A stretch of 64,000 bases of DNA from Sideroxydans lithotrophicus. GTDB taxonomy: Bacteria; Pseudomonadota; Gammaproteobacteria; Burkholderiales; Gallionellaceae. Positions 8,339 to 52,547 of this stretch are shown piece by piece. The position numbers were made by a program, and so were the translations under genes. How positions within the stretch are numbered: position 1 is the first letter of the stretch; the number at the start of each line of letters is the position of its first letter. The DNA lies in NCBI GenBank assembly GCA_020723185.1, contig DYJI01000007.1, positions 59,003 to 123,002 on the forward strand, written 5' to 3'. The notes beneath the pieces were generated by a model that ran no database searches, had not been told where the DNA came from, and was given only the letters and a program-made list of their open reading frames with translations.

Positions 8339-9616
8339 ATGTCATTCAGTCGTCGTGATTTTCTGAAGGCCGGTGTCGCCGGTATCGCAATCGGATCGTT
8401 CCCTGGACTGGCTTTTGCATCCAGCGAACTGGTCAAGAAGAAAGGCCAGCGTGTGGTGGTGGTGGGTGGCGGTTTCGGCGGTGCTACCGCTGCCAAGTAC
8501 ATCCGCAAATGGAGCAAGAACAAGATCGAGGTGGTGTTGGTCGAGCGTAATGCCAATTTCATCTCCTGCCCGATGAGCAACACCGTGCTCGGCGGCACCC
8601 GCAAGATCGAAGACCTGACCATGAGCTATGGTACGCTGCAGAAGAAGTACGGCGTGAAGCTGATCAAGGGCGAGGTCACTGCCATCGATCCGGAGAAGAA
8701 GAAAGTCATGCTGGCGGACGGCCATCTCAGCTATGACCGCCTGATCGTTTCGCCCGGTGTCGACTTCATGTTCGACAAGGTCGAGGGGCTGGATGCCAAG
8801 GTGGCGAGCGAGAGCATCCCGCACGCCTGGAAGGCCGGGGCGCAGACCGTCCTGTTGCGCAAGCAACTGGAACAGATGGCGGACGGCGGCGTGTTCGCCC
8901 TCGCCATCCCGAAAGGTCCCTATCGTTGCCCGCCGGGACCGTATGAGCGGGCCTGCCAGGTGGCGAGCTACCTGAAGGAGCACAAGCCCAAGTCCAAGGT
9001 GCTGGTGCTGGATGCCAATCCGGACATCGTCTCCAAGAAGGGGCTGTTCATGGCGGCGTGGAACGAGCTGTATCCGGGCATGGTGGAATACCGTCCGAAC
9101 TCCATGGTGCTGGGTGTCGATGTGGCGACCAAGACGGCCAAGACCGAATTCGATGATGTGAAGGCGGACGTGCTGAACGTCATTCCGCCGATGCGTTCGG
9201 GTGTGGTGGCGGACATGGCAGGGTTGGCCAATGTCGATGCGCGCTGGTGCGGGGTGGATTTTCTGAGCTATGAATCCAAGGTGCACCAGAACATCCACGT
9301 CATTGGTGATGCTGTGTCGGCCGCGTTGCCGAAGTCGGGACATATGGCGACCTCGCAGGCCAAGATCTGTGCGGCGGCGGTGATCGAGATGATGAGCGGC
9401 AAGCCGGTCGATCAAGCACCCGTCATCGCCAACACCTGCTACAGCATGGTCAGCGGCGAAGAGGCGATGCATGTGGCGAACGTGTACCACTTCAACGCCG
9501 AGAAGATGGCGATGGTGCCGGCGGAGGGCGGTGGGGTGTCGGCCACGCGCTCTGAAATGGAGGGCGCATTCGCCGGTTACTGGCTGAAGAACATCCTCAA
9601 CGACGTATTGCTCTGA
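8339..9616 (+). CDS. fccB: Flavocytochrome c sulfide dehydrogenase flavoprotein (FccB/SoxF)
   Basis: Tat signal SRRDFLK, VVVVGGGFGG FAD motif, CPMSN, CPPGPYERA, NTCYS. Confidence 0.9.
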   Translation: MSFSRRDFLKAGVAGIAIGSFPGLAFASSELVKKKGQRVVVVGGGFGGATAAKYIRKWSKNKIEVVLVERNANFISCPMSNTVLGGTRKIEDLTMSYGTLQKKYGVKLIKGEVTAIDPEKKKVMLADGHLSYDRLIVSPGVDFMFDKVEGLDAKVASESIPHAWKAGAQTVLLRKQLEQMADGGVFALAIPKGPYRCPPGPYERACQVASYLKEHKPKSKVLVLDANPDIVSKKGLFMAAWNELYPGMVEYRPNSMVLGVDVATKTAKTEFDDVKADVLNVIPPMRSGVVADMAGLANVDARWCGVDFLSYESKVHQNIHVIGDAVSAALPKSGHMATSQAKICAAAVIEMMSGKPVDQAPVIANTCYSMVSGEEAMHVANVYHFNAEKMAMVPAEGGGVSATRSEMEGAFAGYWLKNILNDVLL

Positions 9617-49802: not shown

Positions 49803-50912
49803 TTACCCGACTTTTACCCACTCGTCACCACGCACGTCGCGGTAAATTGCGGTGGTGGCAGCATCTTTGTGGCCAGCGATTGCTTGGGCATAATCCCCGC
49901 CTTGGCTCTCGGTGTAGAGTCGGATCGACAGGCTGCGGATTTCGTGGAAAGAGGGCGGGGTTTTGCCGTTCTCCCCCTTGATGCCGGCTAGGTCTCGTGC
50001 ACGGGCGAAACCCTTGGAGATGGTATCCACCCATACCTGATCACCAGGCTTGGATAGCGACCTAGGACGGGTGTGGTGAACAAGCCAGCGGCTGACGATG
50101 TTATCTCGGCATGCTTTGACGGTGGACGACAAGGAGAAACCAGCTATGCAGGTGTCGAGAGGGATGCTGACCTTGTTTTTGGTCTTACCTTGAATGACGT
50201 AGAGCCGATCATCAATCCATGCGGTCGAGTCTTTTCCACGCCGGAATTCGAGGGCTGCGATATCCTCCCTGCGCTGAGAGGTGAGCAAGGCCAGCTCCAT
50301 GGCTCGCGATATCCATGCATCAAGCTTCAAAGCCTGTTCGTAGATAAGCATGAAGTCTGGCAGTGTTAGGCGAGATCGATTGACTACGACTGTGGGCGCT
50401 CGTGTTTTTGCTGCAAGATTGTCTTCAGCCCAGCCTTCCTCAACGGCATCTTTCCAAATGTCCACTGCAGCTGAACGCATTGCTAGAGCCATGCGGGGGC
50501 GATCTTCGTAGCTATCCAGCACCTCTACCAATTGTCGCACCTTGATTTCTGAAAGATGGGTACCGGCCCCCAATGCCTTCTCCCATGCGCGGCCAGTGCT
50601 AGCTTTGTTTTTCAGAGTGTTCGCGGCAAGCTTGCGCTTCTTCTCACACAATTCAAGATGGCGCGACAGTACGCGACCAAATGTTGGAGAGCTTGGTTTG
50701 TTCTCGACGATGGTAGATAGACGCGTTGTGGCAATACTTGCATAGATAGCGCTGTTCAGTGCCATCGTGTCTGCTATTGCCTGCTCTTTGTTGGATCCGA
50801 GACCATGGCGCTTTCCGGAGCGAGGATCGCGATAGGCGTAATACACCTTGCCAGAGGTTTTATCCTCGGTGCGGTATAGATTCATTGGCAAATTGTGACG
50901 ACGTGGCCTCAT
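49803..50912 (-). CDS. int: Lambda-type tyrosine integrase with N-terminal arm-binding domain
   Basis: N-terminal RPRRHNLPMNLY..YYAYRDPRSGK; catalytic R (SQRRED), K, HxxR (FHEIRSL), GH and Y (YRDVRG). Confidence 0.95.
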   Translation of the reverse strand: MRPRRHNLPMNLYRTEDKTSGKVYYAYRDPRSGKRHGLGSNKEQAIADTMALNSAIYASIATTRLSTIVENKPSSPTFGRVLSRHLELCEKKRKLAANTLKNKASTGRAWEKALGAGTHLSEIKVRQLVEVLDSYEDRPRMALAMRSAAVDIWKDAVEEGWAEDNLAAKTRAPTVVVNRSRLTLPDFMLIYEQALKLDAWISRAMELALLTSQRREDIAALEFRRGKDSTAWIDDRLYVIQGKTKNKVSIPLDTCIAGFSLSSTVKACRDNIVSRWLVHHTRPRSLSKPGDQVWVDTISKGFARARDLAGIKGENGKTPPSFHEIRSLSIRLYTESQGGDYAQAIAGHKDAATTAIYRDVRGDEWVKVG

Positions 50913-51127
50913 GCCGCGTGGAGTATTTGCAGTGCGCGTGGTGACATTTCCATATTAGTGCATTGTACAACCACTGGAGTGCGGACCGCATTCTCGTCCA
51001 CCATGTAGCAGGTACCAACTTTTTCGGCGCCTGCAATCTGTCCTGTGGCCGCCCACGAGCGCAATATTCTGATTGATGGAGAGGGGCTATAGTGGCGGCG
51101 CCCCCAGTCTTGAAGGGTGACTTTCAT
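50909..51127 (-). CDS. xis: Excisionase (lambda Xis-like)
   Basis: 72 aa; TLQDWGRRHYSPSPSIRILRSWAATGQI; GGAG RBS; ATGA coupling to int. Confidence 0.85.
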   Translation of the reverse strand: MKVTLQDWGRRHYSPSPSIRILRSWAATGQIAGAEKVGTCYMVDENAVRTPVVVQCTNMEMSPRALQILHAA

Positions 51128-51155: not shown

Positions 51156-51196
51156 AGTGTAGAGCACTAAACCCTTAAAGGTCAAGAAGACTAAAC
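51156..51196 (-). promoter_or_regulatory. xis-int promoter overlapped by two 16-bp operators
   Basis: Minus strand TTGACC-N18-TACACT; operators at 51157-51172 and 51181-51196 match those at 52256-52318. Confidence 0.8.
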
Positions 51197-51209: not shown

Positions 51210-51497
51210 TTAAGTAGATTTTCCAGAATTTCTAGCGAGTCGATCGGCTTGTCGGTCCAGACTTCTGGACGTGGCGGCCAAGCTGGTGGCGGTTGCCCGG
51301 ATGAGTTCAAGCACGTCATCTGCTGTGTCGACAGGCTGCCAATCTTCCGGCTTTGTGTGGCCAGATACCACCAAAGGATCTTCCATCATGCGCGTGCGGA
51401 AATCCTCATATGCCACCTGAGCCAATCTCTTGGCGCGTCTGTTGATGCGCGCAATCTGGCTATTGGTGAGCTGTGGCTGAATGGGAGTGTTCGCCAT
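51210..51497 (-). CDS. Hypothetical 95-aa protein downstream of the antisense RNA (candidate antirepressor/effector)
   Basis: AGGA RBS and ATG 51497; no family recognised; position matches that of C4-controlled genes. Confidence 0.65.
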   Translation of the reverse strand: MANTPIQPQLTNSQIARINRRAKRLAQVAYEDFRTRMMEDPLVVSGHTKPEDWQPVDTADDVLELIRATATSLAATSRSLDRQADRLARNSGKST

Positions 51498-51549
51498 GAT
51501 GGCTATCCTGGGCCTGGTTGGTTTTCACCGTCACTGATTGGAATGAGGA

Positions 51550-51620
51550 GGGTGGCAATACGGGTTGACAGACCGGAACCAAGGAACCGGCAGAGCTTTC
51601 GCTCTCCCACACTGCCACCC
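51550..51620 (-). ncRNA. C4 (P1/P7) / CI (P4)-like antisense RNA
   Basis: Three-way junction: 15-bp closing stem GGGTGGCAGTGTGGG/CCCGTATTGCCACCC, AGAGC-GAAA-GCTCT hairpin, (G)CCGG-loop-CCGG(T) hairpin and single-stranded CTGTCAA. The loop and bulge are complementary to an upstream site. Confidence 0.82.
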
Positions 51621-51644
51621 AATAGGGGGCGTGTTTACGGACAT

Positions 51645-51668
51645 AAAAAAGCCGCGGTGCAGGCGGCT
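51645..51668 (-). terminator. Rho-independent terminator between the antisense target and the antisense RNA
   Basis: Minus strand AGCCGC-CTGCACC-GCGGCT followed by TTTTT. Confidence 0.75.
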
Positions 51669-51674
51669 GATCCG

Positions 51675-51693
51675 CTTGGTTCCGAGCTGTCAA
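51675..51693 (-). promoter_or_regulatory. Antisense target site (a1/b1- or seqA-like)
   Basis: TTGACAG-CTC-GGAACCAAG pairs with CTTGGTTCC-GGT-CTGTCAA of the RNA (18 of 19 positions, including one G-U). Confidence 0.8.
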
Positions 51694-51723
51694 ACTCGAC
51701 CGGCAATTTGTGCTGGCCCGCGC

Positions 51724-51752
51724 AGTATGCCTATCAGCGAATTTTGTGTCAA
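51724..51752 (-). promoter_or_regulatory. Near-consensus sigma70 promoter driving the antisense-RNA transcript
   Basis: TTGACA-N17-CATACT; no GTTTAG operator overlaps it. Confidence 0.8.
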
Positions 51753-51886
51753 AAGTGGAAAGGCTCTATCAGGCAACCAATTTGAGGGTAATTTTGGCGG
51801 TAACTCTGATTGCGGTTTTGCTTGCGAGGTAACTGTGTGCGAGCAGCACAGAGAATAGCTTCAGTTGAATTTGAAGCTGAATAACG

Positions 51887-52255
51887 TTATTGGGTCGCCT
51901 GCTTTCTTTGGGTTTGGGGAGCGCCACTATCTCCGTCTGGTTCAGCGAGCGGAGTAATGATTTTGACAGCATCTTTCCGACGGCTTTCGCTCATTGCCTC
52001 CATGATCTTCATTGCCTGGCGAATACTTGGATCAAGCTTCATAGGGCCATCTCCAAGCATCATCCAGCGAGCACTAAACCCAGTGGTTTCCTCGAGCTTG
52101 TATGCATAACGGGGGGCGAAAGACTTAATCAGCCCGGACTGGAGCTGATTCGCAACTGACTTGGACATCCCGCAAAGCTTGCCGAACTCGGTGTCCTCAT
52201 CGATTCCGAGCTCTTGTTTGACGATGGCAATGCGCTCGGGGATTGTTGTTTTCAT
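51887..52255 (-). CDS. CI-like XRE repressor without an S24 peptidase domain
   Basis: 122 aa; N-terminal HTH pattern and FSARWMMLGDG motif; divergent from the cro-like gene. Confidence 0.8.
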   Translation of the reverse strand: MKTTIPERIAIVKQELGIDEDTEFGKLCGMSKSVANQLQSGLIKSFAPRYAYKLEETTGFSARWMMLGDGPMKLDPSIRQAMKIMEAMSESRRKDAVKIITPLAEPDGDSGAPQTQRKQATQ

Positions 52256-52319
52256 GTTTAGACATTAAAACAATTCAAGTTTAGAAGGATTGACTGTCGC
52301 AGGTTTAGTGTTCTACACT
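52256..52319. promoter_or_regulatory. OR-like region with three 16-bp operators and divergent promoters
   Basis: GTTTAG-N4-TAAAAC (52256), GTTTAG-N4-ATTGAC (52279), GTTTAG-N4-CTACAC (52303); rightward promoter TTGACT-N18-TACACT. Confidence 0.8.
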
Positions 52320-52325
52320 GAAAAC

Positions 52326-52547
52326 ATGGACAGCGAGGAACTCAAAAAACATCGGGCACTAATCGAGCAGATAGGCACCGTGCCCCTCATGGTGATGTTC
52401 GACATCAGCAAGGGGGCGATATCTCAATGGCGCAGCAATGGCATCCCAAAGGCTCGCCTGATGTATCTGGAATTGAGTCATCCAGAATTGTTTTCTGACT
52501 CTCCAAAGTCCAAATCGTCAAAAAAGCCACGCAAGGAAACACTATGA
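52326..52547 (+). CDS. Cro-like HTH protein
   Basis: 73 aa; FDISKGAISQWRSNGIPKARLMYL is a typical Cro/transcriptional regulator pattern. Confidence 0.8.
   Translation: MDSEELKKHRALIEQIGTVPLMVMFDISKGAISQWRSNGIPKARLMYLELSHPELFSDSPKSKSSKKPRKETL

Follow-up and report, generated by a model that had tools for sequence, protein, structure and literature searches.

A C4-type antisense RNA and a candidate antirepressor in an accessory cassette of a lambdoid integrative and conjugative element from Sideroxydans lithotrophicus

How is an integrative and conjugative element (ICE) induced when its repressor lacks a RecA-cleavable domain, and what is contributed by the small gene that lies beneath an antisense RNA beside that repressor? 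These questions are raised by a 64,000-nucleotide (nt) stretch of contig DYJI01000007.1 from Sideroxydans lithotrophicus (hereafter, the window), which carries an ICE with a lambdoid switch. To our knowledge, few routes of ICE induction have been described, namely SOS cleavage of SetR, the ImmA protease, and quorum or substrate signals. The small gene, orf95, encodes a protein of 95 amino acids (aa), which an initial annotation had put forward as a candidate antirepressor. We find that orf95 is a stand-alone version of a C-terminal domain, so far uncatalogued, that C4-gated Ant-type proteins carry, and that it belongs to an RNA-gated cassette that some sister ICEs carry and others lack. The antirepressor reading is partly supported by this homology and context.

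A domain shared with C4-gated Ant-type proteins

No match to orf95 was found in Pfam, PHROGs or NCBIfam, in agreement with the initial annotation, which had recognized no family for the gene below the antisense module. A word-based search recovered 10 relatives, nine of them full-length (95-101 aa, 65-97% identity), and 31 residues are invariant across the nine variants, including a loop motif. The ratio of nonsynonymous to synonymous substitutions (dN/dS) for orf95 is 0.32-0.41, indicating purifying selection that is looser than that on the neighboring repressor (0.09-0.10), xis (0.06-0.08) and int (0.03-0.05) genes. Nine full-length homologs and a purifying dN/dS mark orf95 as a real gene. 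Its AlphaFold2 (AF2) model (predicted local distance difference test, pLDDT, of 78) is a helical hairpin of residues 12-39 and 60-93 with a conserved loop, DPLVxxGHTxPEDWxP, and shows no membrane segment.

We then consider the wider family. A profile search of 1.84 billion representatives gave 41 matches, with E-values of 1e-34 to 1e-4 over about 80 residues; two of these (P0011, of 3387 aa, and P0036) were set aside as spurious repeat proteins. Most of the matched proteins are about 200-250 aa long, typically about 220 aa, and carry the orf95-like region at the C-terminus. In the domain alignment W53 is invariant and P55 is present in at least 90% of sequences, forming a PExWxP motif. An N-terminal Ant-type domain was identified in 19 of the 20 relatives scanned: Rha (Phage_pRha) in six, Bro-N in five, AntA in four, KilA-N in three and ORF6N in one. 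None of these N-terminal domains was detected on orf95, which consists of the C-terminal domain of the family plus about 10 residues. Such domain shuffling is the architecture of the phage antirepressor/Bro/KilA proteins, reportedly described by Iyer, Koonin and Aravind in 2002.

The association with C4 RNA extends to the full-length relatives. At all five of their loci with upstream DNA (L007, L008, L010, L011 and L012), 47-51 nt separate the end of a C4 RNA from the start codon, and in four of the five the C4 RNA is preceded by an isrK or c4-a1b1 leader. With every one of these loci C4-gated and the N-termini swapped, the C-terminal domain is therefore the constant partner of the C4 RNA.

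The domain is carried by only two of 401 genomes of the class. A tblastn search with orf95 found no match in 50,697 phage records; the domain of a phage-type member found none in the same phage records or in 72,556 plasmid records, and a scan of IMG/VR with a sub-alignment recovered no relatives. A Protein Data Bank (PDB) fold search with the orf95 model gave no match and a BFVD search gave noise only, while the domain profile matched only designed coiled coils among PDB sequences. Given its absence from Pfam, from the phage records and from the plasmid records, we regard the domain as undescribed.

The antisense module upstream of orf95

On the minus strand the genes and signals run in the order repressor, hairpin, promoter, terminated leader, C4, 52-nt leader, orf95, promoter, xis, int. 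The boundaries originally assigned to orf95 (51210-51497, minus strand) and to the repressor gene (51887-52255, minus strand) were correct. The parts of the cassette are as follows.

51724-51752, minus strand: cassette promoter, sigma-70-like, TTGACA-17-CATACT, conserved in two ICE relatives (L001 and L002)
51645-51717, minus strand: leader RNA of the isrK / c4-a1b1 type, about 73 nt
51693-51687, minus strand: decoy site a1 in the leader RNA, UUGACAG
51682-51675, minus strand: decoy site b1 in the leader RNA, GAACCAAG
51668-51650, minus strand: intrinsic terminator closing the leader RNA, a hairpin followed by a U run
51550-51627, minus strand: C4-type antisense RNA (Rfam RF01695)
51586-51577, minus strand: b' loop of C4, UUCCUUGGUU
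51571-51565, minus strand: a' of C4, single-stranded CUGUCAA
51505-51534, minus strand: target sites in the orf95 leader
51534-51528, minus strand: target site a2
51515-51505, minus strand: target site b2, spanning the Shine-Dalgarno sequence AGGA at 51509-51506
51210-51497, minus strand: orf95, 95 aa, predicted helical hairpin protein

The C4 model (RF01695, clan CL00128) covers 51550-51627 with 51 bits (E = 5e-8; gathering score 45 bits), and the RNA is present in a single copy in the host genome, its 3' end lying 52 nt before the start of orf95. The leader RNA scores 37 bits against the isrK model, below the gathering score of 50 bits. Within the module, a1 (UUGACAG) perfectly complements a' (CUGUCAA) of C4, and b1 (GAACCAAG) perfectly complements the b' loop (CUUGGUUC). 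An open reading frame (ORF) that overlaps C4, at 51460-51693, was rejected as coding; the relatives have a different frame.

Relative to the orf95 start codon, a2 and b2 lie at -37 to -30 and -18 to -8. The sites hold matching positions in the other loci compared, namely P1, whose record annotates c4-icd-ant and its antisense sites, two relatives in ICEs and five of the phage type. With the window this makes nine loci, and at eight of them pairing of the b' loop falls between -20 and -4 relative to the start codon; loop and target sequences covary between loci, with compensating differences. In the window, b' is predicted to pair at -18 to -8, over AGGA. Pairing was computed from duplexes of the a' and b' segments; when applied to the whole inner C4, RNAduplex unfolded the hairpin and gave no usable information. 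By homology and by position, antisense control of orf95 is well supported as a prediction.

We also surveyed C4 RNAs across the 401 genomes of the class, of which 27 carry them (loci L023-L052). In most of these loci 45-58 nt separate C4 from the start of the first ORF, which usually encodes a small orphan protein of 60-120 aa (in one case DUF6124). Ant-type first ORFs, with AntA, Bro-N or Rha domains, number only four or five, and none of them carries the orf95-like domain. Some of the surveyed genomes have 6-10 C4 copies.

An accessory cassette among sister elements

The cassette spans about 560 base pairs, roughly 51769-51205 on the minus strand, and comprises the promoter, the a1/b1 leader with its terminator, C4, the a2/b2 leader and orf95. 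It is flanked on one side by the gene for the non-cleavable CI-like repressor and on the other by the xis-int promoter, which that repressor controls. The whole arrangement is kept in three ICE relatives that adjoin uvrB (L001, L002 and L003). A second copy of the cassette, consisting of C4 and an orf95 that is 95% identical, is present in the same metagenome-assembled genome (MAG) as L003 (L004:1-1920). This second copy has other neighbors: the excisionase gene beside it is of the unrelated HTH_17 type, the integrase also differs, and a tRNA gene and dnaB adjoin it. The presence of a 95% identical copy beside an unrelated xis-int pair indicates that the cassette travels with the regulatory region and not with the recombinase. 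Both contigs of this MAG break just upstream of C4, as expected for two ICE copies with a common interior.

Other sister elements lack the cassette. In L019 and L020 the repressor is 64% identical (alignment A4; 69% in a local BLASTP alignment) and the gene order, cro / replication / flhDC-like / T4SS (type IV secretion system), is the same, and neither C4 nor the cassette is present: the repressor hairpin leads straight into the xis promoter (L019:5372-5650). The operator of L019 is different and palindromic, ACTTTATAAAGT, and is found at both the cro and the xis promoters. In L054 the repressor is 80% identical and the operator at the xis promoter is the same (GGTTTAGTG...ACACT); the cassette is absent (1568-1870) and a long perfect hairpin stands in its place. 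The cassette is thus accessory, present in some sister ICEs and absent from others. The basic switch does not require it; in this it resembles immI, an extra immunity region in P22 and P1.

The repressor and its operators

The switch that the cassette adjoins has the following parts.

51887-52255, minus strand: repressor, 122 aa, XRE/CI-type helix-turn-helix (HTH) plus two C-terminal helices, without an S24 peptidase domain
51857-51878, minus strand: hairpin directly 3' of the repressor gene, also kept in sister ICEs without the cassette
51156-51185, minus strand: xis-int promoter, TTGACC-18-TACACT
51173-51156, minus strand: 18-mer operator GGTTTAGTGCTCTACACT at the xis-int promoter
50909-51127, minus strand: excisionase (xis), from Pfam and PHROGs
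49803-50912, minus strand: integrase (int), Lambda-type tyrosine
52290-52319, plus strand: rightward (cro/transfer) promoter, TTGACT-18-TACACT, with an identical 18-mer operator at 52302-52319
52327-52547, plus strand: Cro-like gene, first of the rightward replication / flhDC-like / T4SS operon

The Cro-like gene is divergent from the repressor gene, and behind it come a phage-type replication initiator, an FlhDC-like pair and an F-like T4SS; the switch of this ICE is of the lambdoid kind. The start of the Cro-like gene is likely the ATG at 52327, whereas the ORF list places it at a TTG at 52290. The -10 element of the rightward promoter ends at 52319, and with the first ATG at 52327 the cro mRNA is probably leaderless. 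No promoter was identified for the repressor gene itself.

A weak HTH_3 match was obtained for the repressor, which PHROGs labels a transcriptional repressor, and its 26 homologs are all 80-136 aa long. Its AF2 model has five XRE HTH helices (residues 5-67), two further helices (76-100) and a disordered tail. The nearest PDB folds are generic XRE repressors, with weak matches (E = 0.003-0.1), and the PDB neighbors include repressors that are antagonized by small proteins: SinR/SinI, Rep of phage SPC32H, an arbitrium-phage repressor and 186 CI. Conservation of the C-terminus extends both to ICEs that carry the cassette and to those that lack it. The family is also represented in a lambdoid-phage-like setting (L021:461-5814), by a repressor of 136 aa that sits beside a divergent P22_Cro-type gene, with RecT and then a YqaJ-type exonuclease on the repressor strand.

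The 18-mer operator, GGTTTAGTGYTCTACACT, occurs in exactly two copies in the 64 kb, against 0.01 expected, and both overlap the -10 element of a promoter, Pcro in one case and Pxis in the other. It is not present at the cassette promoter, so transcription of C4 and orf95 appears to be independent of the repressor.

Comparison with known systems

The closest likeness is with immI of phages P1 and P7. The RNA there belongs to the same Rfam C4 family as that of the window and is processed from its own operon transcript. Decoys a1/b1 precede it and targets a2/b2 follow it, b2 covering the ribosome-binding site of the first ORF; the window has decoys and predicted targets at corresponding places. 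What the P1 RNA gates is a product that counteracts C1, which, like the repressor in the window, is a repressor without a RecA-cleavable domain. In P1, however, icd is followed by ant, whose product Ant1 ends in a C-terminal ANT/KilA-C domain, whereas the window has a single 95-aa ORF without ANT (PF03374) that is unrelated in sequence to Icd and Ant1. The c4 promoter of P1 carries an operator for the primary repressor (Oc4/Op51), whereas the 18-mer in the window is found only at Pxis and Pcro. Finally, P1 is a phage-plasmid, whereas the window carries an ICE that combines a cI/cro switch of the lambdoid kind with an F-like T4SS.

A similar order, seqA - CI RNA - seqC, is found in P4, where the same Rfam models match the leader (isrK) and the RNA (C4). 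At 8420-8705 of the P4 record (L053) the isrK model matches the seqA leader and the C4 model matches the CI RNA, which lies inside the record's 137-aa 'cI gene product' annotation. Downstream in P4 is also a small, 95-aa, single-domain antirepressor, epsilon, whose target is a short non-cleavable repressor. Epsilon binds the C repressor of P2, and the P4 record calls it a helper derepression protein. Unlike orf95, epsilon belongs to PF25738, has no similarity to orf95, lies about 245 nt after the RNA and acts on the repressor of the helper phage, not on P4's own immunity.

In the isrK-orf45-anrP operon of Salmonella Gifsy-1, one promoter gives rise both to a short leader RNA that is terminated and to an mRNA that reads through, and the short IsrK RNA activates translation of the AnrP antirepressor in trans (PMC4825925). 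The window resembles this operon in that its leader matches the isrK model and has a terminator at the same place; it differs in that AnrP is a different protein and that the isrK match in the window is below the gathering score.

For the repressor, the closest parallels are SinR/SinI of B. subtilis and Rep-Ant of phage SPC32H. SinR and SPC32H Rep are XRE HTH proteins of about 110-120 aa with a short helical C-terminal part for oligomerization, as in the window, and are neutralized by a small helical protein; both are near PDB neighbors of the window repressor. The fold matches are generic, however, and hold at the HTH level only (E = 0.003-0.1), and no match was obtained between orf95 and the SinI or SPC32H Ant fold.

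Among ICEs, SXT/R391 (SetR/CroS, SetCD) also uses a lambdoid repressor/cro switch to drive FlhDC-like activators and transfer genes. SetR of SXT/R391 is RecA-cleavable and SOS-induced; the window repressor, by contrast, has no S24 domain, and an RNA-gated Ant-type cassette takes its place. Unlike ICEBs1, with ImmR/ImmA, the window has no ImmA-like M78 protease beside its repressor. RNA-gated antirepressors (P1/P7, P4 and Gifsy-1) and ICEs with lambdoid switches (SXT) are thus already known. What differs here is the combination of the RNA-gated antirepressor theme with a lambdoid ICE switch, the new C-terminal Ant domain family, the occurrence of this domain as a bare 95-aa protein, and the portable-cassette behavior among sister ICEs.

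Proposed mechanism and alternatives

Together, these observations lead us to propose, tentatively and at somewhat under an even chance, that orf95 is a minimal single-domain antirepressor-type protein acting on the 122-aa repressor of its own ICE. C4 would be made continuously from the operator-free promoter, and its b' loop would pair across the Shine-Dalgarno sequence and keep orf95 untranslated. The protein would be made when C4 is absent, for example on entry into a fresh or naive recipient, and also when the terminated a1/b1 leader RNA titrates C4, as IsrK does in Gifsy-1. It would then bind the repressor, perhaps engaging its two C-terminal helices as SinI does with SinR. Neutralizing the repressor would free the identical operators at Pcro and Pxis and turn on transfer genes and excision, with a possible contribution from transcription that continues past orf95 into xis-int. 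If this is true, an RNA-gated antirepressor cassette brings the immunity logic of P1 and P4 to conjugative elements. The family also offers a natural dissection of Ant-type proteins, with the C-domain constant together with C4, five N-terminal domains swapped, and here the C-domain alone; its survival on its own points to which part of these proteins does the work.

Several points weigh against this proposal. The window's a2 and b2 duplexes are imperfect (-7.1 and -9.3 kcal/mol), fall short of those in the phage relatives and are no better than with shuffled leaders (p about 0.2-0.3); antisense control of orf95 may be leakier than in the phages. The C4 survey tempers the argument from position alone, and a distant family member (L015) has no C4 nearby. 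Neither sequence nor fold comparison detected similarity of orf95 to characterized antirepressors, including P1 Ant1, P4 epsilon and any PDB entry, and when the domain profile was compared by hhalign with P1 Ant1, P1 Icd and P4 epsilon, all three results were negative. The shared C-domain could be an oligomerization module, and not every protein with a Bro-N, KilA-N or Rha N-terminus is an antirepressor, some being toxic. orf95 evolves 3-4 times faster than the repressor, which neither requires nor excludes an interaction. Finally, sister ICEs work without the cassette, which therefore cannot be the sole means of induction in this ICE family. The candidate antirepressor of the initial annotation gains from the homology to the C-domain of C4-gated Ant-type proteins.

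The same accessory distribution bears on a second explanation, that orf95 is a functional Ant-derived effector whose target is something other than the repressor of its own ICE. The target might be the repressors of sister ICEs or prophages in trans, with orf95 as an anti-immunity weapon and C4 as a self-immunity RNA, or it might be another regulator, such as the FlhDC-like activators. The cassette is mobile among ICEs of a common repressor type, a single MAG contains two ICE copies that differ in their integration modules, the C-terminus of the repressor is kept whether or not the cassette is present, and immI determines heteroimmunity in P1/P7, all of which such a role would accommodate. Yet no target can be named from sequence, and the simplest one is the neighboring repressor, whose operators control the flanking promoters; we consider this explanation unlikely, if worth keeping in view.

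There is also a bolder reading, which we regard as speculative and decidedly unlikely. The orf95-like domain would be the actual repressor-neutralizing module of an entire uncatalogued class of C4-gated Ant proteins, with the interchangeable heads (Bro-N, KilA-N, AntA, Rha) dispensable. The bare domain with its RNA lock would then form a portable anti-immunity cassette that switches on both its own ICE and cassette-less sister ICEs with the same repressor, the resident C4 protecting against incoming copies. If true, this would constitute an RNA-addressed, ICE-versus-ICE induction system.

The initial annotation had offered a division inhibitor like Icd or Kil as its alternative. Here the toxic function would be masked by C4 and would be expressed when the element enters a cell or is induced, or would serve for addiction or exclusion. 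orf95 does hold the icd position, as the first ORF after C4, most C4 RNAs in the survey precede small orphan ORFs of 60-120 aa, and some KilA-N and Rha proteins are toxic. However, orf95 has no similarity to P1 Icd (hhalign probability <1%, no phmmer match), its model lacks a membrane segment, and its domain relatives are fused to Ant-type N-termini and are not placed before a separate ant gene. The alternative gained nothing from the analysis, and we judge it quite improbable.

It is also conceivable, if very unlikely, that orf95 is the decaying remnant of a truncated ant gene, or a mere leader cistron whose translation alone matters, by preventing Rho-dependent polarity on xis-int. orf95 is indeed missing the N-terminal domain that its full-length relatives all have, its dN/dS is above that of the neighboring genes, and no terminator was detected between it and xis. 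Decay is nevertheless at odds with a frame that stays intact in nine variants down to 65% identity, with the invariant residues and with purifying selection, and xis is served by a separate promoter under operator control, 82 nt downstream.

The SOS question

Induction through the SOS response, whether by RecA-stimulated cleavage of the repressor or by LexA control of the switch, is most implausible: a one-mismatch E. coli-type box does lie at the start of Pcro, but such boxes occur at chance frequency, the LexA-like protein of the host uses a different box that is absent from the window, and the repressor has neither an S24 domain nor the Ala-Gly and Ser-Lys elements of RecA-cleavable repressors. 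Searches of the 122-aa repressor gave no match to Peptidase_S24, and the three S24 proteins of the host genome are all encoded outside the ICE, on other contigs. The initial description of a short repressor without a Ser-Lys peptidase region agrees with this, with the HTH and two helices of the AF2 model and with homologs of at most 136 aa.

The E. coli-type LexA motif, CTGT-N8-ACAG, has its one-mismatch site at 52318-52333, and 20 such sites occur in the window against 20.3 expected. The host genome (99.98% complete) encodes no PF01726 LexA domain. It does encode an S24 protein of 199 aa whose own promoter carries AGAACGTTCGTTCT; the host SOS box derived here is AGAACG-WW-CGTTCT. No copy of this box is present in the window at up to two mismatches, and the earlier statement that the control region has no LexA box holds for both motifs. 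A metalloprotease of the ImmA type (M78, PF06114) is absent from the whole genome. The S24 domain, the host SOS box and the ImmA protease are thus all missing, and no SOS or ImmA-type route is visible; the absence of these signals suggests that induction would be SOS-independent, and the initial proposal stands to that extent.

Elsewhere in the genome, two further copies of the host 14-mer precede umuD-umuC and one more is found at another site. The sites lie at C12:62372, C2:276899 and 276924, and C7:68002 (loci L016 and L017), and the 14-mer is Cheo-box-like. Its distribution suggests a small SOS regulon that is not of the E. coli type in the betaproteobacterial lineage of the host.

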